DNA of 64,000 bases from the NCBI GenBank assembly GCA_964187785.1, contig OZ076409.1:31620001-31684000 (forward strand), read 5' to 3'. The DNA comes from Amphiscolops sp. MND2022. Lineage: Eukaryota. The notes below the pieces were generated by a model. It was not told where the DNA came from, did not search any database, and worked only from the letters and a program-made list of their open reading frames with translations. The first letter of the stretch is position 1, and each line of letters opens with the position of its first letter. This document shows, in pieces, positions 10,218 through 49,166 of the stretch. A program made the translations under genes and the position numbers.

Positions 10218-10531
10218 CATACGATTCAAACGAAATTTTTTTTACAGTCATTCTAAACAATATCAGGGTCCTATGTGTGCAATGGCATCAAAATCGTATG
10301 ACTGTGATCTGACAATCAATGATACGTCAAGAAAGTAGTTCCACTGGTCGTGTGCGAAAGCAATATTACCTCTAATGCTTTTCTTGTTATGCCTTTGTTT
10401 GAGCGTTTTTGTGAGTCAACAGAAAATGACGCAAACCTGAACAAATGAGAGCATTAACTTGAATAGTCCCTTCTTAGGGAATTGATCAGCATTTGGTTAT
10501 GAGGGGAATGATAGTTTTTTTTTGTTTTCAG

Positions 10532-14529: not shown

Positions 14530-15310
14530 TTGTTGCTGCATCATACGCCTTGTTGTTGCAGGGAACAGCTTCTGCAAATGATCGATGATAACCAGGATAC
14601 CCGTGTCACGATTGTCAGATGGACAGATTTTAATGTGATCGTACTGTACCAACTCGTTAAAGTACCCACTCTGGATGTTTTTCGAATGAAATCGTAGGTC
14701 ACCGGGTTTATCACGCACTTGTTGGCAAGTCAGGCATTGACTGATGTACTGTCCGATGCTCTCGCGGTTACCTGGCCATGTGTGACGCTCTTCAATCGTT
14801 GCCAGCACCTTGACAATGCCTTGATGAATCGATTCTGTGCAAGTAGTAGGTCTTTCAAACCGTGGACCGTCTTGGAATGCTCGTGAAGTTCCATACTCAC
14901 ACTGTTGATGGCAAAGGTCATCTGTTTCACATATTTCGGAGCTGTGTTAAGTGCTTGTTTTTCGGCACCATTTAGAGGATGTGTGGTTCTGGACGGCACA
15001 TTAGCTATATGCGTTGGCAGCAAAGTCTTGTCTGCATTCTTCGGGTAGTTCAATCCAATCCTCAGGGAGGGTCTTGAGATTAGGGATCCATAATTGGCTG
15101 TTAATGCCCTTTCCCTAGTACTGACAGGGTTTGTTTTTCTCGCGCCACCAGCTACATTGGACAAAACGAGCTTCGCCCCTATCCGAAGCTCTGTGCTGTG
15201 CCTCTGAAAATGCGAAAAGACAGCCTCGATTTCAGTGTACCCATATCCGAGTCCAACATCCACGAAGTTGCGTATATATCCATATGCATTCTGGAAGGTT
15301 GCGTACATTG
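14530..15310 (-). mobile_element. Ty3/Gypsy LTR-retrotransposon remnant: integrase N-terminus plus an upstream unassigned coding fragment
   Basis: HQGIVKVLATIEERHTWPG...SQCLTCQQVRDKPG...FNELVQYDH...GILVIIDH = HHCC zinc finger plus start of the DDE core. The 14860-15310 part has a diverged copy at ~17060-17235. Confidence 0.75.
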
Positions 15311-18079: not shown

Positions 18080-18141
18080 ATGAACTCTTATTTTGGGCTG
18101 AGTCGAGCTGCACTGTCCTTTGAATACCTTCACACGAATTC
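18080..18141 (+). CDS. MORC2: MORC-family GHKL ATPase, coding exon 1 (MNSYFGLSRAALSFEYLHTNS)
   Basis: ATG at 18080. Translation matches the MORC1/2 N-terminus as I recall it (Y..L.RAQL.FEYLHTNS). Ends with TC|GTTAGT donor; phase 2 matches the next exon. A TTCTTCAG acceptor at 18071 suggests an upstream UTR or short coding exon. MORC2 vs MORC1 naming is not resolvable by eye. Confidence 0.9.
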
Positions 18142-18206
18142 GTTAGTATTTTACCCGCTATATTCTAGCAGTACACCAAATCCGTTACAGCTATTTTTCA
18201 TTTCAG

Positions 18207-18260
18207 GACGACTCACGAGTTTCTCTTTGGGGCTTTAGCTGAATTAATTGACAATTCAAA
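18207..18260 (+). CDS. MORC2: MORC exon 2 (TTHEFLFGALAELIDNS; GHKL N-box), 54 nt
   Basis: TTTCAG| acceptor, |GTAAGT donor, 65-nt upstream intron. Peptide nearly identical to the MORC motif TTHEFLFGALAELVDNA. Confidence 0.95.
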
Positions 18261-18659
18261 GTAAGTTATAATTATGCGTTCTCCCTACAGTGAGATTTTA
18301 TGCGAAAGCACCATCTTCACACTAGTTTTACACCACTAGGGATCCAGAAAATTGAAGACAGTGATATTTTTGTAGCTTTGATTTTTTTCTAGATTTCGAT
18401 TTTATCAAGTTTTTTTAATTTTTTCTCCCAGTTTGATCCAATACTGTTTCAATAACGAACGGTGTCAGGGCTACAAAAATGATCGAGGGGATTTTTCTTC
18501 TGACCAGTACTGTAGCTGAAACGTGTTTTGCGTTGAAGCTGCTAACTCTTGAAAAGTGCCTGTCAACAGCAAAATGTTTAGTGTGAGATGCGTAAACATT
18601 CTCAGAAAGCCCAGTTGCAACTTCTGAATGTTTCAAAACCATTGAAAAACACATACCCT

Positions 18660-19200
18660 CAAAATATAAGGTATTTGATTACTAATTTGCACCTGGATAG
18701 AAACAGACGGAGATTTCCCGAATTATGTCGATACCACGTACTGTTCATTATATCTTCCGTAATTACGGAGAAACTGGGTGCAGAACCCCACAAATGTACT
18801 CAATGCCGGTCGATGCTGCGACGGTTTTCACCTTCATGCCCCCATGTGATGGCCAATACCTGGGCAGATTGTCGCAAGTATCTAATACGTAAATTTCGGC
18901 GCCTGCCCCAGCTGAGAGGGCTGCAGGGACACACGAAGGGCGTCAAGAAAATTGATTTTTATCCAGACGTCACATGGAGAATCGATTGGATTTTTCCTGT
19001 CATTAAAAAACTTCCCTGACGAAATCCAAGATAGAAATATCTGGAAGGCGTGTGTAGTTTGTGAGACTACCTATGGTCGGAAGTAGAAAGACGCACCCAA
19101 ATAAATGACAAAAACGTGGCGAACAAACTCGTGGCACTTTGGGCATCTGGACACACGGTCTTTGTTCGTATCAATCGCAACTTGGACTGCGATCAATATC
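18660..19200 (+). mobile_element. Tc1/mariner-superfamily transposase remnant, internally deleted
   Basis: Frames give KQTEISRIMSIPRTVHYIFRNYGETG (N-terminal HTH), RR.L..RGL.G...KK and HMENRLDF..H (Tc1 H...RL.FA..H motif), and LWSEVERR...LVALW (C-terminus). TIRs not identified. Confidence 0.6.
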
Positions 19201-19849
19201 AAACTTCAATTTTCTTAAAAATTTGTTTTTAAATATCAGGCCTCCCAAAGTCAGGAAAACACCACATAATTAGGGCTGCAAGTAAATGCATGCGGAAAGA
19301 CCTTGTTCGGAGGAGAAAAATGCCGTTTGGAGTGTCTTTCTATCTTAACTTGATGCTACCTCACGATGTTTTGAATGTGAGCTTGGCAAGGTGTCGAGAT
19401 GTCAAGAAACGTACATGAGATTTAACTATGAATGTAATATCATCAGAAAACGTGCAATTAACCTCGAAACATGTTTGATTCCGAGTTTGGACTGTAGCCA
19501 CTCGATTAAAAGACTTTACACTCATTTGAAAATTGTTCATTAAAATCCAAATACTTGAAACATTGCAGTACATTCCATCTCCATTTCAGGGGAGATGGGA
19601 ATGTACTTGCTGAAGGCCAGGTACTATGACAAAATTGGTTTTATGCGACGCTTTTTTGCTATTGCGCTCTGCGACAACTATTCAGACTTTTTCTCTGCAC
19701 TCTTTTTCACGACAAATGATATACGTCTGTCCATACTTCAAACATCACCATCATTAACGTCCACGCCACATACACACATCGGCGCCCACCGTCTGTGGCC
19801 ATGCCGAGGCATGCCCTCGTCGACGTATACCAAAATTACGCTTTAGCGC

Positions 19850-21500
19850 GGTAGCTGTTAGGTATTTTGAGAGATTCCATGGCCTCAAACATGCTAGAGG
19901 AATTATTATTTCAAGTTAATGTTCCATGTCACATCCAAAGTGACTTTGGAAGCCATGGAAGTTTTCTGGAACATGGGCAATATCAAACGTGGAAGCCATT
20001 TTTTAACATTTCATGGATCTGCGGATGGTTTTCAATTCAATTTTCTCTCTCTACCTTTGGCAAACACAAATTACAAAATGGCCTTGAAGATTTTGATGAT
20101 TATTTTGACAACCAAAGACTCGTGTTAGCAATTTTCAATTTGAAATCACTCCAAGGTGAATCGGCATCAGAATTGCGGAAACGCATTGTCGCATTCGACG
20201 GGAATTTGGCGTCAATGCAGGGTCTTAAGGTGGACAAATTTTCAAGTGATTTTGTTTGGAGCCGTATTTTGACCAATAAGCTGGATTCGAATTCCAGACG
20301 ACAATTGGGAGTACATCATCCATGAAAAGACCTACACACATTGCAGCAGCAAGTAGATTTCGTCAATAGACGAGTTCGAGCGTTAAAAGTCTCGGATCCT
20401 CGTAGTTATCGAACAAAAAATGACAAGGTTAAAACAGGGCGCATTCCTCCAAAACAGAATTTCCAGAATCCAGTTTATCAAAACTACAAAAACACAGTTG
20501 AAAAATGCTGCGTATGTTCGACAGGTCACAAAATTGTCAATTGTGGCATTCATAGTTTTGGATTTCAACGCCAAGACGACTTTTGTTGTGAATTCGAAAG
20601 TGTTTCATTTGCCTCCAAGCATGGCATCTATTGAAGAATTCCAACTATAAAAGCACATGCAATGTCTGCAATGGCAAACAAAATTCATTACTTCACTACG
20701 AAAATGCTAATAATCGCAGTGAAAATACTGATACAGTCGTCGCCGGACAAGCTAATGCATTTGCCAACCGTGCTGTCTGTTGAAGACGACTCAAACCAGA
20801 TCACCAAATGCCGTGCTCTCTTGACTCACAGATGAGTCCCATGTATGAAGCAGTTTAACGCATGAAGTTGAAACGTCATAAACATTGACTTACTGTCAAC
20901 GGGATTGGAAGCGTTCAAAGGACCTACAACTCCGTAAGGGTTCAGTTAAGATGGAACGGAGGGAAACTGCTGGAAGACCAAGCTTTCATCCTTCCAAATC
21001 TCAGCCAGCATGCACCCATCAAATCTTTCAAATCTTCAAACTGGTTGCATATGAAGACAGTAGAACTGGCAGATATTAAGTTCAATGAGCGCAATCCAAT
21101 TAATTCTTGGAGCTGGCGTGTTCGAAAAATGTTCGATGGTTCGTTTAAAGAGGGGGTCTACACTTCCGTAACCCTGTTTTTGTATTGATTGCGTCGGGCA
21201 AACAACCCATCCAGGAATCAGCTAGTCTCATTACGTCACTCTGCCTCAACGGAAATTTCGTTTCGAAAGAGCTTTGGGAATTGGACTTATTCCCCAAAAC
21301 ATGCCTGTTCTCAAATGAAGAGCTTCCTTATGAAGAACATTTCCAGGAAACAACAAATCTAATAAAACCGGTTTGAAGCCTCAATGCTCTTCAAACCAGA
21401 CGCTAAACATTTGGAGGATACATATGTTCAGGACAGACGTCGCTTTCTGAGCTTAGAGAAACGTTTGGAATTGACGAGTTTTGGTACGATGATGGATATC
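19850..21500 (+). mobile_element. BEL/Pao LTR-retrotransposon fragment 1 (gag DUF1759-like, zinc knuckles, aspartic protease, start of RT region)
   Basis: ESASELRK...NKLDSNSRRQ; C..C...H..C; PTV.SV....KCRALL(D)SQMS; RRFLSLEKRL. Heavily frameshifted. Confidence 0.8.
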
Positions 21501-22799
21501 ATCGAAAAAAGTATCAAAGCCTTACTCATCTCAATAAAGCGCTGTTCTTGGACGAAATTATTTTTTTACTTTTGTGAAATAAACATTTTTGTATTTCAGT
21601 TTTCTCTTTTTTCTGTACTGATTTTTAGTGTTTCAATCAAAACCTTCAAAAAAGGAGAAAGTTTATTTATCCTACACCCTTTTTATCACTTTGATATTTA
21701 TATTTTCTGCATATTTTCATTCGAAAAATTGTGTCAATGATATCATAGTTGAATAGTTTATAGGTTGATGCGATGCCTTCGTCTACTTTTAGCGAACCTT
21801 TCTTCACACAATCCCAGGTTTGCTTCTTCCCACTAAAAAGTGAATCATAATCATCACAGTTTTATTCCAGGCTAATCATAGTAATATAATGGCATTCTTG
21901 CTATGATTACAGCTTGATAATAGTAAAATCATAGAGAAAATGATTTGCATGGTGCCATATTTTGTCTAGACAATGATCTGCCTTATGATAGATTTTTTCC
22001 CGAACTTGGCTCTGAATTGTCTCAGAGTATTTCCAGAGAATATTGCCAGTCTACACTTTTCTTGCAAGAAAACAAGTATCAATGCCGAAGGAAAACCCTT
22101 GTTTTCTGGACTTTGTACGGTTTTGTACTAAAGATTATCGGCTGTCGGCGAAATTATTGGAAAATTGAAAATTTGTTAGACTGCTTTGAAGCATTTCTGT
22201 GGGCGCGTTTTGAAGTAAGTTGTGTCTTGCTATGACTGACTGTTTTTTGGCCCAGTAGTTGTGTGTAGCGTGGAAATAAGAATTCGTGGGGCTCAAATCA
22301 TACTAAGGTTCTTTGGCAATTGCAAAAGGTAGACTAGGCCAAAATGTCCCCCTTCGGTTTTTGTTTTCGGTTACGAAGAAGCGTTTTCCAAGCTTGAAGA
22401 GTCCTAACTTTGATTTTTTGGCACGGCACTATGCGACTCTCAAACGATTTTTCTCAGAAATAAGGGTGTTTAATGTTAGTAGTAAGAGAATTCCCTCCTT
22501 AAATGAGGCCAAAATTGGAAACAACGAAAATAGGCCTTTTGATTTTTTTACTTTCATCTAATCCAAGGAATGAATTCTCTTACTACTCTGTGGTCATCAA
22601 AACAAACAATATTAGTAGTGAAAATAGTAGTGAAATTACCAAAGTAGTAGTGAAAGTTTTCCCAAAAAAACTTGAGATAGTCTCCACAGCAAAAAAGGTG
22701 TAACCGGGTACACCTTTTTATGCAAATTTTTCGAGATCCCAACCGGGCTTCTTTTTTATTTGGGAAAACTGCATTCAAGTTTCGCGTAAAAATTTAAAC

Positions 22800-23640
22800 A
22801 TAATTTCTAGATAAATGAAGAACAATGAACCTAAACAAATAATAAGGAATCTTCGCCCCAGTAATAAAAAAGTTTTGATCGCTTTAAAATAGCTCCCCAT
22901 TGCAAAGATGAATGTTGGAGTATTGATCTGATTGATCGCTCAAGTTTGAGCGAATACAACAAAAGCTACAAGTTTATTTTTACCATTATTGATAACTATA
23001 CAAAATATGCATGGGTATTTCCTCTTAAAGATAAAAAAGGAAAAAGTACAACACAAGCATTTAAGAAACTAATAAGTAAAAGAAAACCAGAAAAGGTTTG
23101 GTCGAATGGAGGTAAAGAGTTTTATAATAGTACATTCTTGGATTTTCCTAAAAAAATGAAATTCAAATTGACTCAACTCATTCAGATTTGGAAGCTGTTT
23201 TTGTTGAACGATTTAAAAGAATCCTGTTAGATCTAATAAAAGAACCAATGTATATTGTAGGAAAAGCTTGTTGGTTGAATCATCTTGATGCTGCTTTGGA
23301 AAAGTATAATAATCGTGTGCATACCACAACGCGTATGACACCTTTCGAAGCTAATGACAAACCAATACCTAATGTAATGTCTAGTAACAATAAATTGCCT
23401 AAATTTCAAGTGGGAGACTTTGTAAGAGTTCCTGATGAAAGGAACTATCATCCAAAAGGTTATACAACGAACTGGAATAGAGAACTTTCTAAAATGAATA
23501 AAACTAACACCACTAACCCCGTTACGTATGGTTTAGAAAACCAAGATGGAGAACTAATAGAAGGAAAGTCCTATGAACAAGAACTAAGAAGAGTATTCAA
23601 CTTTGAATCTAACCAGAAGGTATTAGAAAGTATGAACATT
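22800..23640 (+). pseudogene. Polinton retroviral-like (rve) integrase, frameshifted
   Basis: WSIDLIDR...IIDNYTKYAWVFPLKDK...KPEKVWS.GGKEFYN...VERF.R...KYNNRVHTT.RMTPFEA...KFQVGDFVR...KGYTTNW...EGK.YEQEL. Confidence 0.9.
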
Positions 23641-26199
23641 TTGCATTTTGTCGCATTTGGGTGTTTTTGGATATGTAGTTTCCAAGCCAGCAGCTTTGAT
23701 CGAACTGCAGAAGTGGAATATATAAAACTGTTTGAAATAGCATTTCAATAAGCTCGGCCACTGGTGAAACTGGAAGATTGGAGGAATTGGCGTAATCCGA
23801 CAGCCATTCCTTCTTGATTGCGAGTTTTTCCGGAGTAAGAGGTAGGTCGTTGTGAGGTGCATGCAAATGTGCTGGATATTCCAAGTCCCCCTCAACGAAA
23901 AAACCAACGGTCCCGAAAGAGTCAGTTTGTAGGATATCATCTAAAGACAAATCTTCTCTCCATTTGTAGTTACCGACAGGAAGAGGTTGCTGCATTGTTC
24001 CAGCATATAATGAAGTGACATCAAAAAATGCTCCGAACACTGAAGGCTGGGAGGGATCGAAATCTTGCATGTATTGATTGTTAGCTTTGAAGTGTCGCAT
24101 AGCGCCGGTTCCATTGATACCACCGCGGATAGCCCGCTCACAAAACAGTAACATGTCAATATCCGTCAAAATTTCACGCTCAACTTTGGTGGTGATCAGC
24201 ATCGCTTCCCAGCTCAAGTTGGGATCTGAAAAAAATTGAGCAGGATCTAGTTGATACTCTTTCACACCCACGTCACGGAAAGCCTGAAAGATGTCTGCGA
24301 GAAGATACACATCAAGGGTTAAATATAGGTCATGATAATCGCCAAAGTCTTTGCACTGCATCAAATTGAACATGTCTTTTGCTGTTTGGGACTGATCCTC
24401 GGTTATATCAATTTTACCAGTAAGACTATTTCTCCAAGCATCACCGTATGCTGGAAAAGGAACCCTAAAACCTTTCGAAGCTATTCAAGAAACTGTAGGG
24501 AAAATACCCTTTACCGCGAGTTTTTCGAAAGTCAGCATCGTTCAGATGCGAAAATTTCTTCCTTAAAAGTGTGAGCGATGAAGTCTCCATTGTTCTGGCC
24601 AAGCTGTCGAGAGATTGGGACATGAACTGATAACTGTCTGAGCAGCGAATTCCACTGTAAAGCGCAACAACTTTACCGTCCTTGCGTTTGTATTCAGACA
24701 CTTTGATGCGAAGACTATTAGAGATATAAATTTCGTCAGTACCAGAGATGGCTGAAAATTTTTCACCAGGGAGAACATTGATATTTTTCAAGATGTGGTG
24801 GGAATCATACCTGGAGAGATTGTCAAAGAACACAGGCAAGAAACGCTTGATCTGAGCCTTCAAATTACACATGGAATGAGCAATCCCAAAAATCATGCCC
24901 GATGAGTGGCAGTGATGAATCACCGGGTCATCTTGTATGACGCTTTTGCAAATACAACACTTTTCACCTCTAGTTGAGGCCAGGAATTACTCTTGTTGAG
25001 TTTTAGTGAGCACATCACTTAGAAATCTGTACCTTTGTCTCTCTGAGTCACACCAGGCATTCCACTTGCGAAGGCAGTTCATCAACTTTTCGATGCAATC
25101 TCCGCGGTAAAAAGGTTGATCGACAACTTTGTTGCTTTGAGAATCAACCAAAACAGCTCCATAGCTCGCAGGTAGCTGTTTCTCAATCAGAACAGTTTTG
25201 CTACCGCTCTGAATAAACATCGGAACATTGAGAGCTTCTAAATCTGCATAAACGACAAAAGGACACTTCTGAGTTTTTTCCCAGTTTGAGAAAGTCAGTT
25301 TCAGATGCTCACTGGGCATCACAATCCTCAAAGGTTGATTGTCATCACAAAGTCGAGTATGTTCCATGAATTTTTGCTTCCCAATAGACTGCATGCAGTC
25401 CACGCAAAACTTCGTTTTGGGACCCTTGGCAGCTCGTTTTGGAGATCTGCATACTTTATGCATGAAAGCTTGAAAATTAGTTATCAGACAATAGTGCGAA
25501 TTGAAGCCATCCAAAAGTAAATGCAAAAAAATCTTTGGATATTTCTCTTTGTTTTTTCTTCGATGACAACAGATGAGTCCTCCCTGCTCATCGAAATTGA
25601 ACACTTATGGAGAGAATATTGTCGCTTTCAAATCTTGCGATATCCTTAAGTTTCATAGGCATCATTGACTCGCTGAATATGAGACGATTAAATTTGTCAT
25701 GGTATTGAGAAGGCCTTTCGCGATTTTTGGACCGAGGAAAAAGGTACGCGAGAATACAATATATGAAGCAGAAATTGTCATACAAGTTGATATTAAGCAG
25801 ACATTTACGCATGCCCTCAAGTTTTGCTGGGGTTGGCAGGAAAGAAGTTCCAGCAAGTGATCTTGTATGACAATTTTTGATATCTAAAGATGAAAGCTGT
25901 TTAAGAATCCAACCTGAACCACCGGAGCAGAAGACGTTGAGTTGTCTCAAAACTTGGTCAATCAACTCATCAAGGTCTGCGTTGTTGATCGACTCAACAG
26001 CTCGCACCAAACGTGATGAGAAGTGGGGAGATATAGTTCCTTCGGTACATGGTTTTGATAATCCAACTTGCAAACACAGTTCAACGCGGTATATTCCTTG
26101 GTTGGTTATTTCCTGGTCAATCAAAAGTCCGATATTGGCTCGATTACTCCATATAAAGGCCAATGGATCAACACTTTCAGTTTGAACATCTAGTCGCAA
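23640..26199 (-). pseudogene. pPolB lineage B (terminal-protein region, exonuclease, endonuclease-VII-like insert, polymerase), C-terminally truncated
   Basis: GSGW...D..CF.Y.ILA; PFVVYADLE (ExoI); HHCHSSG...AHSMCNL (EndoVII-like); NL..YDSH; KG.FPY; YL.LDV.LLADIF; RGGI; DVTSLY (motif A). Ends at KNTQMRQNAK, before motif B. Confidence 0.9.
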
Positions 26200-26557
26200 A
26201 ATTGAAGTGAGAGTTCAAGGCTAACACTGTTTTAGAAACCTGCGGAATCGAGGCCCAATTGACTTTTGTTGTAGTTGTCATTGTGGACGAAGATACAACA
26301 GGGTGCTCCCTACTCTTGTGCGCGTGGAGATAGGACTCGCTTCCAAAAATTTTTGGGCAAGCATGACATTGAATGCTTCTATTGAATTTGTGAATATTCC
26401 TCAGATGGCGGATCAAATTCTTCGAAGAAGTCCATGTTACTTCACAATGTCCACAACTGAAAGACCATAGAGAGGGCTCTTTTTTGTGAACAGCTCTGAT
26501 ATGTTTGAAAAGTCGTTTGGTTTGGAAGTTGTCTCGGCAGTCTGGGCAAGGAAACAT
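26177..26557 (-). CDS. Three C2H2 zinc fingers, probably the frameshifted N-terminus of the lineage-B pPolB ORF
   Basis: CPDC..HIRAVH, CGHC..HLRNIH, CHAC..HKSREH. Overlaps the 5' end of ORF 25588-26199 on the same strand. Confidence 0.75.
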   Translation of the reverse strand: MFPCPDCRDNFQTKRLFKHIRAVHKKEPSLWSFSCGHCEVTWTSSKNLIRHLRNIHKFNRSIQCHACPKIFGSESYLHAHKSREHPVVSSSTMTTTTKVNWASIPQVSKTVLALNSHFNFATRCSN

Positions 26558-27188
26558 TCTGGCAGTGGGAAATCAAAAACTGAACGTTATATGATGGGTG
26601 AAAATTTGAAAAAGTATTCTATAAACCAAAAAAGAACAAAAGGAGTACTTTTCGAAACATGCCAGATCAAATTTAATTTTCACCCATCATTAGAGTAGAT
26701 GTTAGAGAAGTAGGTTATTCAAATGCATGTCTATCATTCAGTAGCTAAACTTGAAAAGATTCTCAGTTGTGTTAATTATATACCAAGAAGAATACTCAGG
26801 TTCACCAAAGTTGAACAAAAGTCGAGTTATCAAGGTTCATCGACAAATAAAAACAACTGAGAAGAAAATTTGAAGTCCAACATTATCGAAATCAACTTCA
26901 ATTGACATTGCATAATTAATTACTTCTAGGCAGACTCGTAAATGACCAGATTCTCAGTTATGTTTATTCGATAAAGAAAAGATCGTTTAGGTTCATTATT
27001 AAAGTTGAGCTGAAGTCAGCTTATCAGGGTTCATTAGCTTATTTGGACAATGTGTGAAACAGTTTTGACATTATCGAAGTGAACTCGGAAAAACTTCGGG
27101 CCCTTTGAAAAACAAAGGTGTCAAAAAATTTGAAAAGTGACAAAAAATGAGATAAAAGTCGGCTGGAAAGGAGTATAAAAGGCGACAC

Positions 27189-27626
27189 TTGGAATATATA
27201 TTCATTGAAGTTCCTGTTGAAAAACGCTCAATATTGGTTTTTAAAACTCTGCATCGTTGGAATTTCCAAATCATCAACCTAAACAACTTTAAAATATTGA
27301 TTCATGAATCAAGAGAGGTCACGATTCGCGAAACACGAAACCCCGGACAAGAGAGCAGCATCGAAATAAAGGTCCTCAAGAAGCGAGTGGACGAATTTTG
27401 CGAAGCTGGCGGGGTGATCGGCACCGAGGCTTCCTTCCCTGAGAAGGCCTTCACGAAACTGATGAGGATCAATTGGACAATTTTCTTCGGGATGCTGGGC
27501 AACGGTAAATTGCCTCAGGAGATGCTGGTGCCGACCCCCGCCAACGAGGACGCAGGGCTTCGTATGGAATCCCGTTTCACGTCAACACATTTCTCTGAAG
27601 TCGGTAAGCATGAACATATTAAATAG
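27189..27626 (+). CDS. Hypothetical protein, putative Polinton accessory ORF (145 aa)
   Basis: Open, GC-richer ORF inside element B, divergent from ZnF-pPolB. No recognised motif. Confidence 0.4.
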   Translation: MEYIFIEVPVEKRSILVFKTLHRWNFQIINLNNFKILIHESREVTIRETRNPGQESSIEIKVLKKRVDEFCEAGGVIGTEASFPEKAFTKLMRINWTIFFGMLGNGKLPQEMLVPTPANEDAGLRMESRFTSTHFSEVGKHEHIK

Positions 27627-27703
27627 GATTAATGTTGGTCAAAGAGAGAGGGACTCAGGCAAATTAGTCTTGAATCGGGCTTGAAGGATCACTAACATAT
27701 TCA

Positions 27704-28351
27704 GTGCAACCCTTTTCTTTGGGCGCTTGTGCCTCACAAGACGATGACTTTATCAAGATGCGTGATGACTTAGGTTGTATTGAAGTGATTTGTTTCAATT
27801 CGATAACACTTCTCATTTCATGTTTAGAAGAGAAGACAGCATTCAGGGCGCCAGTGAGCATATACAACTCGAACACACATACAAAGAAGAGTGTGTATGT
27901 GACAATGAAGGCCTTCCGTTGGGAGCCCGAATGGTCAGAATTCAATCGAGTTGGGCAAGTAATTACGCTGCATCATTGTGAGATGATGCGGCTGATTACG
28001 GAAAATAACGCCTATCTGGATAGAATTGTCGCTCCTTCTGGTAAGCCAACGGGAGAGAGCACTTGCGAGGAGGAAGACCGACCCTTGTCACTACTGAAAG
28101 CTGGGATGTCAAAGCGCAACAAAAAAACAGGATCTTCCTCCTCGCAAGTGCAAAAGAAAATACCAAAAAAGACGGCCCTTGCGGAAGTGACTTCAACAAC
28201 GCCCGCAGTTGATGCCCCAAAGGAGACCACTAGCGAAAAAATCACTAAGATATTGAGGATGAAAACTAATTGTATAGATACAATTGATTTGTATTATTTT
28301 ATTCAGTACCTAATTGTATATTGTTATATTACCTCCAAGTTTTGCTGCTAG
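27704..28351 (+). CDS. Hypothetical protein, putative Polinton accessory ORF (215 aa; globular N-half, K/S/T-rich tail)
   Basis: Open ORF inside element B. No confidently recognised family. Confidence 0.45.
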   Translation: MQPFSLGACASQDDDFIKMRDDLGCIEVICFNSITLLISCLEEKTAFRAPVSIYNSNTHTKKSVYVTMKAFRWEPEWSEFNRVGQVITLHHCEMMRLITENNAYLDRIVAPSGKPTGESTCEEEDRPLSLLKAGMSKRNKKTGSSSSQVQKKIPKKTALAEVTSTTPAVDAPKETTSEKITKILRMKTNCIDTIDLYYFIQYLIVYCYITSKFCC

Positions 28352-28939
28352 TTAGCAAATGACACATCAAGTTTGAAAAATACATCAAGTATTTCGAGTA
28401 AAAACAGTGAAAAAAAGTCATCATGAGAGCGGGTTTTCAAAGTGACTGCGATCAGATTCGATCCGCGTTTAAAATACCTTTCAAATTTTCAAATTGATCT
28501 AAAGATGAAAATTGAAGTACGGAAATGTGCGAAAGTAGAAATTCATTTTAATTCCAAAATTGGTTTGAGCAAAACCGCTTGCTCCAATGCTTACTAAACG
28601 CGCCGTGCCGGCGCGCTGTTCCTTGCGGCCCAGTATTACGACTTACATGAATTCCATCGTGGTCTACACCACTAGGGTACAGGCGCACTGATTTAGAATG
28701 AAATTGAAAAATTGTAATTAGCAGCGTGAAGAATTAAAAAAAGCGATGAATGCAGTATTAGGAATGAGAAACATCAAATTGAATTAAATTGAGAATACAG
28801 CTATTCGGTGTGGTGGCCGTTCAAACTTCGATGACATTGAATAACTCTAGGGTTGAATTGACACAGCATTGCAATTCAATCATTCCAAAACACAGCATTG
28901 AATAAATCAAACATTGGAAAGAATCATTAGCAGTAACAC

Positions 28940-29597
28940 TTACATCGATAGTTCGAGTTTGTGTAAATCGAATAGGTTCAAGGTTAAACATAAATTTGCG
29001 AAAATTGCAGAATTTTGTGGGAAAACAATAGGAAGAAACGAAAGTGTGCGAATACCCCTACCAACGTATACTACTAATGATTTTGTTTCTTGCATTTTTT
29101 TTAGTTTTTCTAAATCATCACGAATATGAATTGAATACATTTATTAATATAAACTAATCTTAAATTATAATTCATAGACATATTCATACTTGTATAATGA
29201 ATTTTGCCCAGATATAAACCCTTCCCTTTATGAACACTTTTTATAATATCAGGAGCAGCAGCAGCAGTTATGGCTCGTAGATTTTTACTTGCTGCTGCTG
29301 AAGTTATTTTAGCTGCGAGCTTCAGTGCTCTTCGGGGATTATTGAGTATTTTCTTTCCAACAATTTTAGCTGCATTTCCTAACGAAGAAAAGAAATTAAC
29401 CAATCCTTCTGCAGCAATAGTTTGATCTGATACTTCGTGGATTTATTTCTTTTACATGTTACATACTTGCCACGTAGTAGTTTTACTAGCATGCCAGTTT
29501 TTTTATTCTGAGTAATATCTCCTTTGATGTTTGTTGTTGCAGAATAGTGTTTGCCACCAACACGATAAGAGTTACTATTAATTTTATTGAAGCTCAT
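28940..29597 (-). pseudogene. Cluster of three small Polinton-type ORFs (basic Ala/Lys-rich 97-aa ORF; C..RNKS-type 72-aa ORF; truncated DDLEKL ORF)
   Basis: Tightly packed, overlapping, co-oriented small ORFs directly downstream of the penton-like gene, as in compact viral gene arrays. Family assignment from recall only. Confidence 0.5.
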
Positions 29598-29611
29598 TAT
29601 TTACTTAAATT

Positions 29612-30604
29612 AAATCTTGATGATTTGAATTGTGAATGTGAGTGCCTCATTGCTGAAGTATACTGGGTTATGGTTCGGGTCTTTTAAGAAAAATTGTGTG
29701 TGGGTTAGTCTTGTTTTGTTTGTCTTTGTGTGTAAAACAGTGTGGGGTTGTTTATAATTTTATATCCTAGTGGGGATGAAAAATTGAAACTAAACAAGAT
29801 TTGTTCTCGAACTCCTTTAACAATTGAGCCATCTACACAATCACACTTCAAATGAACTTTGTCTACGCTCGAAATCATAACTTTGTTTTCTATGACTTCC
29901 TTTACTATGTTTTAGATGTGAAGTTTATTCAATTCTGAATTAAACCTAATCGGGCTTGAGGTTGTTGAGACTGATTTCATTGATATGGTGTCAGGTATTA
30001 TATTGAGTTTAATTACAGAATCAGTTGGTTTTACTTTTATATCATCTACTTCATAAATTCAATCAGCAAGTTTTTTTAAAGCATTGATTTCAACTAATTC
30101 TTATGCTCCTGGTGGTAATTCTATTCCAATATAGTCTAGTTCAGTTTCAAAGTCAGGAATATTTATATGTTGATCAGGATATTTAAAGACTTCGATTAAT
30201 TCCTTTAAATTATTAAAAGTCTTTTCTGGTAAGTTTAGAATAAGTATTATAACTTATTTATAGGTGTATCAGTTTTTTTTACAATTTTATCATCAGAGGT
30301 TTCATATGAACTTGCATTATTCGGTAATTCAGTATCAATCCCAAGTTCTTCTGGTTGTTGTTCTGTTAGAAGAATTTCAAGTTTTTTGATGGCGGGAGTT
30401 ATTAACGGTATTGTATACTTCTAAACTGGTAACTCCCATCATCTATTGTTCGTTTAGTTCGAGAAGAACATCAAATGAAAAATATTCTTTTTGTGTGATC
30501 ATTTTAAATTCTAGGGTTTCTTGTGGTTTAGAATGAGCATTTTCAACAGTTTCTTGATTAGATTTAGCAATATTCAGCAAATGAGATTCCTTTTAATCAT
30601 AGAT
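29612..30604 (-). pseudogene. Polinton minor capsid (penton)-like gene, degraded; start codon separated by the LINE insertion
   Basis: N-term LLNIAKSNQETVENAHSKPQETLEFKM. C-term KVHLKCDCVDGSIVKGVREQILFSF...GYKIINNP...NEALTFTIQIIKI* resembles Polinton penton jelly-roll motifs. Confidence 0.55.
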
Positions 30605-33600
30605 AGATAGATAAAGATTTATAGTAATTTTCAGAAGCAAAGAACAACAGCGAATATGCGAACCACAAAAGTAAACAATCGAACAAATTTTATTGCTAAA
30701 CAAAACATGGTGTGATTTAACATAAAGAAATAGATTCGAAGTGTATAGGTGACGCGAGTCAAGAAGACTCAGCAGTCATTTTTGACACGAATTAGCTATC
30801 AAAGATCATTTAGCTCCTGCAACTTGGGCAAAAGCATTTAACGAAGAAAGTGCAGGACAGATGTAGCATGAATTTAGAGTCGCGAAGGGAACATAAATAG
30901 GAGTGAAGGCTGGATTTGAATTTTTGAAAGGGCCATCCGAAGTCAATTACACGATTTCGGCGATGATAGTTTCCTGTTCCGACTGATCGCAAGAAGAAAT
31001 TGTCGTGTGTTTTGAATTTACTACAGATTTTCATTTCTAAGAGCGGCTGGACATTTGATCTCGTCGCAATTGAGGAGACGCTAAATGAAATTTTTGAGCT
31101 AAAGTCGGAATCAATTTTTCCATTGAGGATCCGCCAGAGAAGCAACATATCTTTTTCAATCAGGATATAACACAGGGGCAGGAAGTTCCAAGTCTCCAGC
31201 CACTCTTGGTAAGAGGCAAACGGATGTAACCAGCGGAAGATTATTTTCTGAAATGCTTCTAATTTCTTCAAACAAGTAACTGAAGGACACCAAACTTCGC
31301 TGCAGTAAAGGAGAATTGATAAAATAAGGGACTGATAGAGTTGCAATGTTCTCCAGCAAGAGAGTCCAGAGGGTATACGCCTCTTTATGAGAGCCAAAAT
31401 TTGAGAACATTTATGTAACTGATATTTGATGTGTGAGTCCCAACATAATCTATTGCCAATAAGAAGACCAAAATCTTTAATTTCGTTGACTCCGCAAATG
31501 GGTACATCCATCATAGACAGCGATAAATTTCCCTGGCCAAAACACATAAAGTTGATTTTATCGAGATGGAATATCATCCTGTTGTCATCAGCCCAGAGAG
31601 TAAAGAATTAATATCACTGTTTAATTGAATAGCGCAAGCACTCGAAAATATTTGAACCCTAGTTTTGAGATCATCAGCATAGAGCAATGATTCGGTATAT
31701 TGCAAGATGCCATAGATATCATTAATGAATAATGTAAATAAAAGACCGCGTACACTGCCTTGAGGAACGCCGGATGTTACATTCTTCAACTCAGAAACAC
31801 TTTGATCCAATTTCACGCACTGCCTACGATTGGAAAAATAAGATTCAAATAACAGCAGGAATTTTTCATCAAACTCAAAAGTTTTCAACTGTTTCTTGAT
31901 TAGATTTAGCAATATTCAGCAAACGAGATTCCTTTTAATCATAGATAGATAGATAAAGATTTATATTAATTTTCAGAAGCAAAGAACAACAGCGAATATG
32001 CGAACCACAAAAGTAAACAATCGAACAAATATTATTGCTAAACAAAACATGGTGTGATTTAACATAAAGAAATAGATTCGAAGTGTATAGGTGACGCGAG
32101 TCAAGAAGACTCAGCAGTCATTTTTGACACGAATTAGCTATCAAAGATCATTTAGCTCCTGCAACTAGGGCAAAAGCATTTAACGAAGAAAGTGCAGGAC
32201 AGATGTAGCATGAATTTAGAGTCGCGAAGGGAACATAAATAGGAGTGAAGGCTGGATTTGAATTTTTGAAAGGGCCATCCGAAGTCAATTACACGATTTC
32301 GGCGATGATAGTTTCCTGTTCCGACTGATCGCAAGAAGAAATTGTCGTGTGTTTTGAATTTACTACAGATTTTCATTTCTAAGAGCGGCTGGACATTTGA
32401 TCTCGTCGCAATTGAGGAGACGCTAAATGAAATTTTTGAGCTAAAGTCGGAATCAATTTTTCCATTGAGGATCCGCCAGAGAAGCAACATATCTTTTTCA
32501 ATCAGGATATAACACAGGGGCAGGAAGTTCCAAGTCTCCAGCCACTCTTGGTAAGAGGCAAACGGATGTAACCAGCGGAAGATTATTTTCTGAAATGCTT
32601 CTAATTTCTTCAAACAAGTAACTGAAGGACACCAAACTTCGCTGCAGTAAAGGAGAATTGATAAAATAAGGGACTGATAGAGTTGCAATGTTCTCCAGCA
32701 AGAGAGTCCAGAGGGTATACGCCTCTTTATGAGAGCCAAAATTTGAGAACATTTATGTAACTGATATTTGATGTGTGAGTCCCAACATAATCTATTGCCA
32801 ATAAGAAGACCAAAATCTTTAATTTCGTTGACTTCGCAAATGGGTACATCCATCATAGACAGCGATAAATTTCCCTGGCCAAAACACATAAAGTTGATTT
32901 TATCGAGATGGAATATCATCCTGTTGTCGTCAGCCCAGAGAGTAAAGAATTAATATCACTGTCTAATTGAATAGCGCAAGCACTCGAAAATATTTGAACC
33001 CTAGTTTTGAGATCATCAGCATAGAGCAATGATTCGGTATATTGCAAGATGCCATAGATATCATTAATGAATAATGTAAATAAAAGACCGCGTACACTGC
33101 CTTGAGGAACGCCGGATGTTACATTCTTCAACTCAGAAACACTTTGATCCAATTTCACGCACTGCCTACGATTGGAAAAATAAGATTCAAATAACAGCAG
33201 GAATTTTTCATCAAACTCAAAAGTTTTCAACTGTTTCTTGATTAGATTTAGCAATATTCAGCAAACGAGATTCCTTTTAATCATAGATAGATAGATAAAG
33301 ATTTATATTAATTTTCAGAAGCAAAGAACAACAGCGAATATGCGAACCACAAAAGTAAACAATCGAACAAATATTATTGCTAAACAAAACATGGTGTGAT
33401 TTAACATAAAGAAATAGATTCGAAGTGTATAGGTGACGCGAGTCAAGAAGACTCAGCAGTCATTTTTGACACGAATTAGCTATCAAAGATCATTTAGCTC
33501 CTGCAACTAGGGCAAAAGCATTTAACGAAGAAAGTGCAGGACAGATGTAGCATGAATTTAGAGTCGCGAAGGGAACATAAATAGGAGTGAAGGCTGGATT

Positions 33601-34570
33601 TGAATTTTTGAAAGGGCCATCCGAAGTCAATTACACGATTTCGGCGATGATAGTTTCCTGTTCCGACTGATCGCAAGAAGAAATTGTCGTGTGTTTTGAA
33701 TTTACTACAGATTTTCATTTCTAAGAGCGGCTGGACATTTGATCTCGTCGCAATTGAGGAGACGCTAAATGAAATTTTTGAGCTAAAGTCGGAATCAATT
33801 TTTCCATTGAGGATCCGCCAGAGAAGCAACATATCTTTTTCAATCAGGATATAACACAGGGGCAGGAAGTTCCAAGTCTCCAGCCACTCTTGATAAGAGG
33901 CAAACGGATGTAACCAGCGGAAGATTTTTTTCTGAAATGCTTCTAATTTCTTCAAACAAGTTACTGAAGGACACCAAACTTCGCTGCAGTAAAGGAGAAT
34001 TGATAAAATAAGGGACTGATAGAGTTGCAATTTTCTCCAGCAAGAGAGTCCAGAAGGTATACGCCTCTTTATGAGAGCCAAAATTTGAGAACATTTATGT
34101 AACTGATATTTGATGTGTGAGTCCCAACATAATCTATTGCCAATAAGAAGACCAAAATCTTTAATTTCGTTGACTTCGCAAATGGGTACATCCATCATAG
34201 ACAGCGATAAATTTCCCTGGCCAAAACACATAAAGTTGATTTTATCGAGATGGAATATCATCCTGTTGTCGTCAGCCCAGAGAGTAAAGAATTAATATCA
34301 CTGTCTAATTGAATAGCGCAAGCACTCGAAAATATTTGAACCCTAGTTTTGAGATCATCAGCATAGAGCAATGATTCGGTATATTGCAAGATGCCATAGA
34401 TATCATTAATGAATAATGTAAATAAAAGACCGCGTACACTGCCTTGAGGAACGCCGGATGTTACATTCTTCAACTCAGAAACACTTTGATCCAATTTCAC
34501 GCACTGCCTACGATTGGAAAAATAAGATTCAAATAACAGCAGGAATTTTTCATCAAACCCAAAAGTTTTA
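30545..34570. repeat. Tandem triplication of a 1342-bp unit (LINE 3' end plus ~55 bp of flanking Polinton DNA)
   Basis: Near-identical ORFs at 30810/32152/33494 (exact 1342 spacing), with only scattered SNPs. Confidence 0.95.
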
Positions 34571-35104
34571 TCAGTAGTTTATCGTGAGATACATGGTCAA
34601 ATGCCTTTTTGAAATCAAAATATACCGAGCAAACGGATACACTCTCATCAAAAGAGCGATAAAGTCTATCGAGAAAAAGCAGTTGAGATAGCGTACTACG
34701 TCCTTTTATAAATCCATGCTAAGATGGGGAGATTTGTGCACGAACTAAGGGGAAATTGTATCTAAATAGCATACGCTCGAAAACCAGAGACATCTTCACT
34801 AAAGTGGTAATTGGTCGATAGTTTTGAGCCATTGAAAACGATCCATTTTTGTGTAGGGGAATGATGAAAGCAGTTTTCCATTCATCAGGCTAAATTCCAG
34901 TTTCAAAAATGCATTGAAAGAGCGAATGTACAAGAGGAGCAAGAATAGAAGCTGAATGATGGAGAACAAATGCAGGAATATTGTCACTCCCGGCTGATGG
35001 GTTATCATCACATTCTTTCAGCATATTCTCGACTTCGGAGACAACTACAAGAGAGTCTGAAAGGATGATACTTGGGATTTATAAGATACAAAGTTTTGAT
35101 AGAT
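30599..35104 (-). mobile_element. 5'-truncated CR1/L2/Jockey-group LINE (RT plus C-terminus, (TCTA)n tail) with ATAGAT target-site duplication
   Basis: NYRPIT, DFKKAFD.V.H..L, SGVPQGS, LYADD motifs. ATAGAT at 30599-30604 and 35099-35104. Microsatellite tail AGATAGATAGAT on +. Confidence 0.9.
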
Positions 35105-35111
35105 CCATTTA

Positions 35112-35321
35112 TCATACATGAAAATATTTAAATCCACTAGCAGCTATGTTGTTCATAAATTCTTGGTTTTGTTTTGATAATTTTTTCTTACTTTTCGGAT
35201 TATGATTTTCATGATACTCATTCGGATGATCTTGATTTGCAGACATATTTTCATGGTTCGGATGATATTGATGTTCTGAGATGATTTTAAATTGAGTTGA
35301 ATAAGCATTAATTTTCTTCAT
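35112..35321 (-). CDS. Small Polinton-type ORF (69 aa) upstream of the penton-like gene
   Basis: Co-oriented and abutting the reconstructed penton start. No function recognised. Confidence 0.4.
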   Translation of the reverse strand: MKKINAYSTQFKIISEHQYHPNHENMSANQDHPNEYHENHNPKSKKKLSKQNQEFMNNIAASGFKYFHV

Positions 35322-35476
35322 TTATTGATGATAATTTTTCAAAATATGATTGGTAGTATAAATTTAGTACTGCATTTTTAAAACCAATTGTTTTTGAAAG
35401 ATATAAAACATATTAACGATACGCTGCGCAATAACTATCATTATTCTGAATTTCATATTCTGAATAGATACCTTTG

Positions 35477-35704
35477 TTAATGTGATTCATTGTTTAGTGG
35501 AGGAGGGCAGCCATGTGAATCAAAGTAATACTCGTTAATAAACATAACCCAATGTGTTCCTTTAGTTGGGTGTAAATTGACTATACCTGACTTTGTATAG
35601 AACGTATCATCTCTCATATATATTCCACACGAAATTTTCATATTTCTATTAGTTTTACAATTCTTGTGGCTGCGTTTTCTAGTCCATATTTTTAACAAAT
35701 TCAT
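35477..35704 (-). pseudogene. Adenain-like (adenovirus-type) cysteine protease remnant of Polinton
   Basis: GIVNLHPTKGTHWV...YYFDSHGCPPP = catalytic His motif and FDS.G of Polinton/adenoviral maturation proteases. The catalytic Cys region is missing. Confidence 0.8.
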
Positions 35705-35870
35705 TGAAAGAGATGAACATTTATTTAATTAGAGAACGTGTTCACTTTAGATAATGTTTGTTTTGACTACTACAGAGTAGTAAGAGAATTCTATCCTTGG
35801 ATTAGATGAAAGTAAAAATATCAAAAGGCTTTTATTGGCGTGAAACACCAAAAAAGGCCTATTTTTGTTG

Positions 35871-36166
35871 TTTTTGCACATGACGAAGTCAATGTGCATT
35901 GCAGTCCAGCTAAGAAAGTTTTTTTTTCCACAATAGCCAACTTCATAATAAGCGCCTTTTAGAGAAAAGCCAAAACCCCAGAGAGATTCGAACCTGCAGC
36001 CTCCCGATTGCGCGGCATAAGTGTTAACCACTGTGCCATAAGGACGTTTTTGAATAAAGTTGAACTGTTGAATATATACGCATGCGATTAAAATAATATA
36101 TATACGCATATTAAAATAATCCTTGTCTTCGTCATGTGTTGCGAAGCACCGCTTCGCCTCTGTGTT
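35871..36166 (+). mobile_element. HINE-B: ~295-bp non-autonomous Helentron-like element inserted in the Polinton B right TIR
   Basis: 12-bp sub-terminal inverted repeats CACATGACGAAG (35877-35888) / CTTCGTCATGTG (36127-36138). 3' hairpin GCGAAGC-ACC-GCTTCGC (36141-36157). T-run ends. Absent from the left-TIR copy at 22478-22587. Confidence 0.75.
35975..36046 (-). pseudogene. tRNA-derived sequence (Pol III A and B boxes) inside HINE-B
   Basis: Minus strand TGGCACAGTGGTTAA (A box) and GGTTCGAATC (B box) at canonical tRNA spacing. The anticodon arm does not pair, so not a functional tRNA. Second copy at ~55455-55525. Confidence 0.7.
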
Positions 36167-36677
36167 AATTTTGGCCTGATCTAAGGAGGGAATTCTCTTA
36201 CTACTTTTCAAGCCTGGAGTGTCCTAACTTTGATTTTTTGGCACGGCACTATGCGACTTTCCAAAAGATTTTTCTCAGAAATAAGGGTGTTTAATGTTTT
36301 AAGCTAGGGAAAAGTGTTTTCCGAGCGTGATGAGCCCCCTCAGATATTTTTTCGGAACACTGCGATTTACCGGAGATTTGAAAAACAAATCTGAAAAGTT
36401 TCCGAAAAAATAATTAATATTAAAATAATATATATACGCATATTAAAATAATCGTTGTCTTCGTCATGTGTTGCGAAGCACCGCTTCGCCTCTGTGTTAA
36501 TTTTGGCCTGATCTAAGGAGGGAATTCTCTTACTACTTTTCAAGCCTGGAGTGTCCTAACTTTGATTTTTTGGCACGGCACTGTGCGACTTTCCAAAAGA
36601 TTTTTCTCAGAAATAAGGGTGTTTAATGTTTTAAGCTAGGGAAAAGTGTTTTCCGAGCGTGATGAGCCCCCTCAGAT
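36088..36677. repeat. 332-bp-period tandem duplication of the Polinton B right end plus flank
   Basis: The second AATTCTCTTACTACT ends at 36537, 332 nt after 36205. The copies are near-identical. Confidence 0.9.
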
Positions 36678-36861
36678 AATGTCGCCAGTTTTTTTAAAGC
36701 AACCTTGAGCATAGTTAAAAGCTTCTCGAACCTTGGACGGGTGCCGACCTCAAACGGTCCCGTCTTGACCCTTCAGCTGGGCGCCAATTTAGGCCGTTCT
36801 CGCTTGACTATAATTCATACAGACTTCTGTGACGAGACAACCAATACTTATATTTTTTCAG

Positions 36862-36896
36862 GGATGCTCGTTCGAAGAAGATTGAAATTTATTCGG
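36862..36896 (+). CDS. MORC2: MORC exon 3 (DARSKKIEIYS), 35 nt
   Basis: TTTTTTCAG| acceptor, |GTGAGT donor. Phases fit exon 2 (AA|G=Lys) and exon 4 (G|AG=Glu). Aligns to the MORC DADATRIDIYA segment. Confidence 0.85.
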
Positions 36897-37499
36897 GTGA
36901 GTCTGCTCCACTTCATCATCAAAAAACTTATGTCATAAAAAATTGAAGATTTTTCATTTTGATTCAATAAATATTGAAACGAAAAGGGTAAGACTTAATA
37001 CGTGTTCTAATGCCATAGTTTGAGAACGCATGTTTTTGGGATACCTGATTGAGTCAATTATGATCCGTTATGGGTTTGAAAACCACTTATAACTAGCTTT
37101 TTATTGGGAAATTCCTACCTTGTGTGTCATTTTTCAAAAATTAACTTTGACTTAATGAGTATTATCTTCACGAATCACATATATGTGTTGTGTTTACAAA
37201 TACTCTACTGAGTTTTTTTAATCTCTGGGATAGCAGGAATAATATAGACAGTGTAAGGATGAGTTGTTCAAACGGGTATGTTTGTTAACCGAGTACCTAG
37301 TAGAAAAGAGTCAGATGTTTTATTCGGCAGTCTAAGCGTGAGATCTAATATCTCAAGCTTCTGGCCACTTAATCTTTGACAAAACGCGAGCGTCCGCCAC
37401 CGCATCAATGAATCGAACGAATGGTATTCGGACGCCGAGAGCTTCACATGTATTCCAATACGAATGCAAAGCGTCATACACGCTTAGTAGTTGTATTCT

Positions 37500-37950
37500 T
37501 TTGTTCAACCAGGTATCTCGAAATTACTCGGACCAAAATCCCTAAATTACTCGACTCGGTACAGGCTTGAATATGGGCGGATTACTCTGTAAATTACTCG
37601 AAAAAAGAACGAAATTAATCACCAAAATTTCAATTTTTTCGGCGTCGACATACAGAAATAGTAAATGCAATGTTTCAGGAGCAAGTTTTTGTCGATCTTT
37701 AATTGAAACCTTGTTGAAATAAAAGAATACTGTCTCAACTGAGGCGGAAGATGGAACAATAAATCCGAATGTCATCGCAAGAGAATACATCTTCCAGATT
37801 CAAGCGGCAACTCTTTCCCAAAACCCGCCAATTTCTTCAAGTATTGCTTGGATGTATATGCTATTTCTCAGAAATACAGGCTTATTACGCGGTTTCACTC
37901 GCTAAACTGTAGTTGGTCAGTTTACTCGTAACATGACTCGGAAATACTCG
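37500..37950 (-). mobile_element. hAT transposon 3' remnant (C-terminal dimerisation domain, sub-terminal TTACTCG repeats)
   Basis: GFW.R......YSLA....VPSSASVETVF.....KDRQKLAPETL.LL.L resembles hATC. AATTACTCG is repeated at ~37520, 37545 and 37590. Confidence 0.7.
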
Positions 37951-38201
37951 CCGAATAATAATGACATGCCTGTGTTCAACTAATGAAGCATATCGTCCGG
38001 GAAAATCAATGACGGTGTAAACTGGTAGAATTATTAACGGTGCGCTTTATAATGATTTGACCGAATTGTTTACCTTGTAAACGGAGTGATACATTGCATC
38101 TTTTTTTGAACTTTCATGGTAATGATTATTGTAGCCTAGAGCAGAAATAACACTGAGCCCTCCAGGGGCCTATTTTGAATTATATAGTTTTCCTGGACGT
38201 A

Positions 38202-39018
38202 TTTTCAGTCGGCGCTTACGAAGTAACAGTCGCTATAGCAGTGGCTTTTTCTAGAAACGCGAAGTGATAAATTCGATCAGAAATGATTAATGCAGTAACT
38301 TAACAGCCACTTGGCCGAGAGGTTAACCCAGATTTTTTGAGTTTTTTGCTTGCAAAAGTAGAGGGGAGAACAAAATTTTTTTCTGCAATATGTCACTTTT
38401 TTCTGAACTTTTAGAACCAAAGTGCCGCATCTTGATTTTTAGCGTAGGCGAGCATAGAAGGCTACCTTATATTTTTTCGGAACACTGCGATTTACCGGAG
38501 ATTTGAAAAACAAATCTGAAAAGTTTCCGAAAAAAATCTCCCAATTTTTTTTCGAGTCCTAATTCTTTTCCGAGTCCTAAGGATGACCTCTTTGTTTGAT
38601 TTTTTTTTGTACTGTGGAACCGATGGTACCCCCTTGGCTTGTCAAACAGCTCCCGTTCACTTTTTGAAAAGTGTTTGGCTTGGTTTTCCGAATTGCGGGG
38701 GTCTCCTTTTGAGTTTTTCGTCTTTGCGTCGTCGAAAATTTTTTCATTTGGTCAAAGGTTACCCTCTTCTCTTTCATTTTTTTTCAGTTTGAAAAAAAGC
38801 GTTTTGCCAGCTTAAAGGCACTGTGAGACATTTTCTTGAAAAACAATCTTTTCAAAAAAAAGTCATTTTCCCAATTGGAAAAAACGGTTTTCTAGTCTTT
38901 TCGTTATCTTCCTTCGGTGTTTTCCGGCACTGTAAGTTTGATGAATTTTTGCATATCTAGAAAGCATGGTTTTTCAAACCTTGAGCGGGGCTCCGATTTG
39001 GGTCGTTCTCGCTTTGTT
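38202..39018 (+). mobile_element. HINE-A degenerate copy
   Basis: TTTTCAGTCGGCGC at the 5' end (38207-38215), GGCACTGT subrepeats, 3' GCTCCGATTTGGGTCGTTCTCGCTTTGTT. Confidence 0.55.
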
Positions 39019-48887: not shown

Positions 48888-49166
48888 ACAGTTTCAGTTT
48901 CAACAATGTGAAGCTTTTCAACTCATCGTATCACAATTTTATTTTTGATGTCAAGCGGCCTGCTTATATAAGTTGCGAATTGATTTACGGGGCATTACAA
49001 TCCGGGCGGACATTCACTACTAATTACTGATTAGTAGTGAATGTCCGCCCGAAATGTAATGCCCCGTAAATCAATTCGCAACTTATATAAGCAGGCCGCT
49101 TGACATCAAAAATAAAATTGTGATACGATGAGTTGAAAAGCTTCACATTGTTGAAACTGAAACTGT
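48888..49166. repeat. Near-perfect palindrome: 137-bp arms, 5-nt loop, 2 mismatches
   Basis: 48888-49024 is the reverse complement of 49030-49166. Centre ...CATTCACTACTAAT-TACTG-ATTAGTAGTGAATG... Confidence 0.97.

Follow-up and report, generated by a model that had tools for sequence, protein, structure and literature searches.

Does a Polinton-like element of about 9 kb with no recognisable capsid or packaging ATPase gene represent a compact family that depends on a helper, or is it what is left of a longer element? This question is raised by a locus in a 64,000-nt stretch of the genome of Amphiscolops sp. MND2022 (assembly GCA_964187785.1, contig OZ076409.1, positions 31,620,001-31,684,000), which is called the window below and is numbered from its first base. 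The element occupies positions 22478-36205 (13,728 bp). In an initial annotation, it was described as terminally complete and as either a deletion derivative or a member of a compact, helper-dependent family. Our analysis supports a single Polinton-type element with both ends, and this element is very probably a degraded copy that has suffered two internal deletions. The features needed to follow the argument, all in window coordinates, are these:

18080-18260, plus strand: coding exons 1 and 2 of a presumably MORC-like host gene, upstream of the intron, spliced in frame
22385-22477: 93-bp direct repeat, left copy, abutting the element's first base
22478-22622, plus strand: left terminal inverted repeat, from its alignment to the right end
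22868-23645, plus strand: rve integrase gene, split over two frames
23645-26572, minus strand: gene with C2H2 fingers, an endonuclease VII domain and a protein-primed family B polymerase (pPolB), in five frames, from Pfam and a six-frame motif scan
27273-27626, plus strand: open reading frame (ORF) A, of a multi-copy family, with a weakly PUR/PC4-like fold
27704-28255, plus strand: ORF B, of a multi-copy family by its relatives, with a basic/acidic tail
28349-29071: the largest unassigned stretch (723 bp), in which a stop-ridden plus-strand frame from 28698 enters an internal break
29072-29140, minus strand: 23-codon gene stub at that break (break 1), with relatives of 231-358 amino acids (aa)
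29113-29600, minus strand: two small basic ORFs (29382-29600 and 29113-29442)
29603-30601, minus strand: presumed penton-like gene with stops and frameshifts, its first codons lying past a LINE at about 35085-35114
30602-35084, minus strand: 5'-truncated long interspersed nuclear element (LINE) with an RVT_1 match and a (GATA)n tail
35380-35728, minus strand: presumed cysteine-protease-like gene in two frames, with an H-W-V, Y-F-D-S, Q-x5-C pattern
35741-35870 and 36165-36205, minus strand: the two parts of the right terminal inverted repeat, from its alignment to the left end
35871-36164, plus strand: HINE-like insert in the right repeat, with 12-bp subterminal inverted repeats, a 3' hairpin and a T-rich site
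36206-36298: right copy of the 93-bp direct repeat, beginning at the first base past the element
36419-36678: recent duplicate (258/260) of 36087-36346, with a second ACTACT tip at 36537
36862-36896, plus strand: MORC-like coding exon 3 (35 nt), 3' of the element, spliced in frame

Host intron and termini

Host exons at 18080-18141, 18207-18260, 36862-36896 and from 39094 can be joined in frame at GT/AG sites. Because the exons flanking the element splice in frame, it sits in coding intron 2 (18261-36861), as had been proposed. The name MORC comes from motifs in the exon peptides, which we take to fit the start of MORC-family ATPases, and has no library match.

The element begins with AGTAGT at 22478 and closes with ACTACT at 36205. 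Polinton and Maverick ends carry (AG)3 or (AGT)2, and (AGT)2//(ACT)2 is a reported Maverick end motif (PMC8097293). When the left end was aligned to the reverse complement of the right end, 130 of 140 bases were identical (37/39 + 21/22 + 72/79), in agreement with the ~140 bp of inverted similarity claimed previously; the right arm is broken by the ~294-bp insert at 35871-36164 plus ~29 additional bases. Positions 22478-22587 of the left arm form a blunt-ended 110-nt hairpin with 16-bp arms and a predicted folding energy of -19.3 kcal/mol (z -3.58), a stability reached by 0 of 200 shuffled sequences. The inverted similarity extends inward past this hairpin (22588-22612 against 35751-35775). 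The 15-mer of the tip, AGTAGTAAGAGAATT, occurs five times in the 64 kb, where 0.25 occurrences are expected. Each arm contributes two of these, one at its tip and one as an inner inverted copy, and the fifth lies in the 258/260 duplicate of the right tip. The second ACTACT tip, at 36537, is part of the same duplicate and does not mark an independent insertion.

The description "terminally complete" is thus correct in that both ends are present, but Polintons' target site duplication (TSD) of 6 bp is absent: only one of the six flanking bases matches.

Gene content and two internal breaks

The integrase and polymerase genes were both recognised by Pfam on the strands assigned to them earlier. 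The integrase is of the retroviral (rve) type found in Polintons and Mavericks. Its match to PF00665 (E 4.1e-6) falls below the curated cut-off, its frame is split, and an IS481-type DDE model matches at E 4.8e-7. The polymerase gene matches DNA_pol_B_2 (PF03175) at E 4.1e-7, above the cut-off, and Endonuclease_7 at E 7e-4, in addition to the C2H2 fingers. It is a protein-primed family B polymerase gene as expected of a Polinton, but it is present as a truncated pseudogene and not whole, which had been overlooked. The DNA_pol_B_2 match stops at profile position 364 of 468, motif A is at 24028 and the gene ends after the motif A region; a motif scan found motifs B and C in none of the element's six frames. 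A PDB sequence search with the pPolB piece gave nothing relevant. The gene meets the integrase head-on at ~23,645, where both frames overlap without native stops (the integrase frame continues stop-free into the antisense of pPolB up to 23751), and the integrase on the opposite strand occupies the space between the pPolB end and the left terminus. An internal break is visible here, at ~23,645, where the polymerase is cut off ahead of motifs B and C.

The other break was located with the help of the gene stub. Three of the four candidates retrieved with the frame from 29140 match it (231, 325 and 358 aa), and they align to its residues 1-21 or 1-23 only, at 87-95% identity. The remainder of the gene beyond the 23 codons is nowhere in the window. 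A second internal break is thus visible at ~29,072, where a gene is cut off after its 23rd codon.

The two plus-strand ORFs between these sites proved to be small proteins with close multi-copy relatives. For ORF A, 15 of 21 candidates were relatives (best 90%, in a cluster of 20 members), and for ORF B 10 of 64 (best 93%, in a cluster of 31 members). P0024 and P0025 reach beyond ORF A into the genes next to it, downstream and upstream, which speaks for one element. The ORF A model, built with 12 of the 15 relatives aligned, is of low confidence (pLDDT 51). Its best Foldseek rows are Pur-alpha (E 0.07, prob 0.92; VIA-align Z 4.2), so that a PUR/PC4-like fold of the beta-beta-beta-alpha type may be taken as a lead only; an atlas search with ORF A yielded nothing usable. 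The ORF B model was too poor (pLDDT 44) for an informative fold search, its alignment against PDB sequences gave nothing relevant, and a profile comparison of ORF A with ORF B showed no similarity (probability 0.6%). Either of them as a hidden capsid or ATPase gene was ruled out, since the whole relatives are only ~110-190 aa long. Upstream of ORF A, a 53-bp motif recurs at a 191-bp spacing (72%) in stop-ridden DNA at 26752-26995. The two small basic ORFs had no usable match in the libraries or, for 29113-29442, in the atlas. As a separate observation, an end hexamer, ACTACT, is found at 29070-29075, exactly on the internal break; the 13-kb interior holds four end hexamers, for which the chance is about 0.007, a pattern that was spotted after the fact.

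The names of the penton-like and adenain-like protease genes are labels derived from motifs and position. The penton-like gene has 366 relatives at E<=0.001, the best of 345 aa at 55%, and no match in Pfam, NCBIfam, PHROGs or the PDB (the last searched with an alignment of 22 of the 150 listed relatives); it may be a single-jelly-roll penton gene, going by its motifs and position. The protease-like gene has no match in the same four libraries, and it may be adenain-like, going by its pattern, recognised by eye, and its position. For two of the 150 listed penton relatives, P0059 and P0114, the match is found on either side of the LINE, and hence in other copies no gap separates the protease side from the penton side.

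Stops or frameshifts break up every one of the integrase, polymerase, penton-like and protease-like genes. Neither a double-jelly-roll major capsid gene nor an A32/FtsK packaging ATPase gene has a Pfam match in the element, and the sole Walker-A-like string in it belongs to the integrase frame. Outside the element, a capsid or ATPase Pfam family was matched by none of the 107 stop-free frames of at least 85 aa in the window. A double-jelly-roll capsid gene encodes about 400 aa or more, and no such gene is hidden here because no unassigned stretch exceeds 723 bp. Within the largest one (28349-29071), the longest stop-free frame is 78 aa and there was no family match. Pfam, the Walker-A scan and the stretch lengths are all in accord with the previous statement that neither gene is recognisable. 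Relatives were found neither in the bacterial and archaeal genome scans nor by phage tblastn, and five short motifs do not appear in one supplement of PMC8502044.

Without the LINE block and the HINE-like insert, the residual length is 13,728 - 4,484 - 294 = 8,950 bp, a matter of arithmetic only, which reproduces the earlier figure of about 9 kb. This is indeed short for a Polinton, as intact vertebrate Mavericks measure 12.7-24.6 kb and have 6-bp TSDs, most copies being degraded (PMC8097293).

The flanking repeat and later rearrangements

The sequences 22385-22477 and 36206-36298 are the two copies of a direct repeat of 93 bp. They agree in 87 of 94 alignment columns (BLASTN E 1e-31), and the repeat touches both element tips exactly, with zero gap. 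It had escaped notice, as had the absence of the 6-bp TSD. The flanking repeats differ at 7 of 94 positions and the inverted repeats at 10 of 140 (Fisher p = 1.0), an equality that fits a single insertion event, if with little power. We lean slightly towards the repeat being a long target duplication created at insertion. Both ends would then have been joined to host DNA 93 bp apart, not 6, and the gap repaired afterwards. Long duplications reportedly arise from aberrant integration of Rous sarcoma virus when both ends join apart. Polinton integrases are not known to have been studied biochemically. Single-end joining by retroviral integrases has been described in vitro (PMC9410886). Literature searches on target duplications around Polintons and their relatives, with PMC12220804 among the papers, turned up TSDs of 4-6 bp only, which does not prove that longer ones have never been published.

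Alternatively, the family may have inserted twice, at sites 93 bp apart that lay on different haplotypes or in two copies of a host repeat, and the two insertions may then have recombined; in this case the left and right ends are of different origin, and the DNA between the sites was duplicated. Such a chimera is conceivable but unlikely. It accounts for both the 93-bp repeat and the absent 6-bp TSD by ordinary integrase chemistry, the arms differ by 7% and by ~29 bp in length, and the surrounding DNA tends to duplicate (1,342 bp three times and 332 bp twice). However, two insertions within 93 bp are required, the match in divergence between ends and flanks would be a coincidence, and the evidence for internal deletions remains.

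The penton-like gene carries the LINE within its first codons. The LINE's 3' 1.28 kb and about 60 bp of this gene make up a 1,342-bp unit that is present three times (98.9-99.6%), which confirms the LINE triplication reported earlier. The same cannot be said of a "visible" LINE TSD: there is at most an imperfect overlap of 6-7 bases, which is inseparable from the (GATA)n tail, and the longest exact word common to the LINE junctions (8 bases) falls inside the LINE. The HINE-like insert recurs at 55355-55644 with 93% identity. By eye, tRNA-like A and B boxes can be seen in it on the minus strand at 35950-36050, where ARAGORN calls no tRNA. Further to the right, the region 36087-38535 has an A-B-A'-C-B' layout, in which 36087-36346 repeats at 36419-36678 and 36344-36410 at 38469-38535 (100%). 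Segment C contains host exon 3, and the layout could be explained by a tandem duplication and a later deletion at a microhomology of 3 bases, or by a misassembly. Assembly artefacts are an unlikely source of the 1,342-bp triplication and of the 332-bp duplication: the high identity of the 1,342-bp units speaks for an artefact, but these units differ stepwise, with 6, 8 and 14 differences per 1,342. The main verdict is unaffected either way.

Several other features of the window lie outside the element. Positions 1-9718 hold nested inverted and direct duplications (84-99%) of fragments from a second, different polymerase-B-like gene. This gene keeps a DTDS motif at 1816 and has no Pfam match, and the region resembles another Polinton family's palindromic debris. 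An intronless ORF at 10515-11273 encodes a Bin3/MePCE-type methyltransferase (PF06859, E 3.5e-34). A 279-bp near-perfect palindrome (97%) at 48888-49166 lies just upstream of another LINE (49817-53392) with endonuclease, reverse transcriptase and RNase H. Fragments of BEL/Pao-type and other long terminal repeat retrotransposons are located at 44132-45573, 55444-55764, 59448-59882 and 14458-14946.

Probable decay in place, its alternatives and known systems

Taken together, these findings make it probable that one Polinton/Maverick copy of a multi-copy family inserted in the intron and then decayed in place. The LINE and HINE insertions and the local tandem duplications came later. The collinear gene order is kept between both ends, and the element would look short because pieces were lost after insertion. 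The DNA lost at ~29,072 would have held what is missing of the stub gene, together with, most probably, the genes for the major capsid protein and the packaging ATPase. Such a copy would be unable to replicate, integrate or package itself and would probably be neutral filler of the intron.

Several points weigh against this account. The stub matches are modest in the database (E 0.01-0.25), whereas against the window they reach E 1e-8 to 1e-7. The negative Pfam result for capsid and ATPase is weak alone, as the long-frame scan also missed the pPolB core that was found ORF by ORF. That the ~29,072 break took the capsid and ATPase genes with it is an inference. A single copy cannot tell local deletions from ones inherited from a mobile parent, and with so few mismatches the equal divergence of ends and flanks carries little power.

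Of the two options in the initial annotation, a deletion derivative has gained the two breaks and the decay in its favour, whereas a compact helper-dependent family is left without positive support. In the latter case, the deletions would have arisen once, and the ~9-kb form would have spread with just its own hairpin ends, while full-length helpers supplied integrase, polymerase and capsid. Both ends are indeed kept and well structured, the relatives are multi-copy (the clusters of 20 and 31 members), and Polintons without a capsid gene have been reported, 9 of 72 being without major capsid protein, ATPase and protease together (PMC4028283). Nevertheless, we regard such a subfamily as improbable. 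The breaks cut through genes, the genes are in neutral decay, neither junction has a second copy in the window, and the element is also without the catalytic end of its polymerase. Moreover, the element retains penton-like and protease-like genes that serve no purpose if there is no capsid, in contrast to the concerted loss described in PMC4028283. A more elaborate version, in which the ~9-kb form is a non-autonomous subfamily mobilised in trans through its 110-nt hairpin ends, makes ~90-bp target duplications routinely by independent end joining, and bears in the ACTACT at ~29,072 the mark of an end-directed deletion, is more improbable still. Least probable of all, the ends could stem from unrelated insertions, or the AGTAGTAAGAGAATT unit could be a free mini-element, given that the left end is a self-contained 110-nt inverted unit and no canonical TSD links the ends, but all five AGTAGTAAGAGAATT copies belong to these ends, the inverted similarity does not end with the hairpin but reaches further in, matches to relatives span the LINE site and one direct repeat abuts both tips exactly.

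As one of many degraded genomic Polinton copies, the element itself matters little. It does urge caution, in that a short capsid-less Polinton seen in a single copy does not have to stand for a new helper-dependent class. The only unusual thing about the element is the 93-bp flanking duplication, which, if true of other copies, would point to a non-canonical route of Polinton integration.

The element resembles degraded copies of Polintons/Mavericks (adintoviruses) in its (AGT)2//(ACT)2 ends, in an inverted repeat inside the 46-1,447 bp range, in its rve integrase and pPolB, in its presumed penton-like and protease-like genes and in its mutational decay (PMC8097293, PMC8502044). It differs from intact ones in being ~9 kb long, in having no capsid or ATPase gene and in a polymerase that breaks off ahead of motifs B and C, and from Polintons generally in the 93-bp flanking repeat that takes the place of a 6-bp TSD. 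The comparison with non-concerted (half-site) retroviral integration is drawn for Polintons from this single locus, unlike in retroviruses; the two have the class of integrase in common, and ends joined apart would yield a long duplication in both. The insert in the right repeat is similar to the HINE/DINE-1 non-autonomous Helentrons (PMC4067079) in its subterminal inverted repeats, 3' hairpin and T-rich site, and unlike them it is a passenger of a Polinton and carries a tRNA-like segment, as judged by eye. Finally, the element shares with the capsid-less Polintons that Krupovic et al. 2014 (PMC4028283) described the absence of a recognisable major capsid gene or ATPase. However, the nine elements described there lost the major capsid protein, ATPase and protease together, whereas this element keeps its protease-like and penton-like genes, and its deletions end inside genes, in the manner of random deletion.

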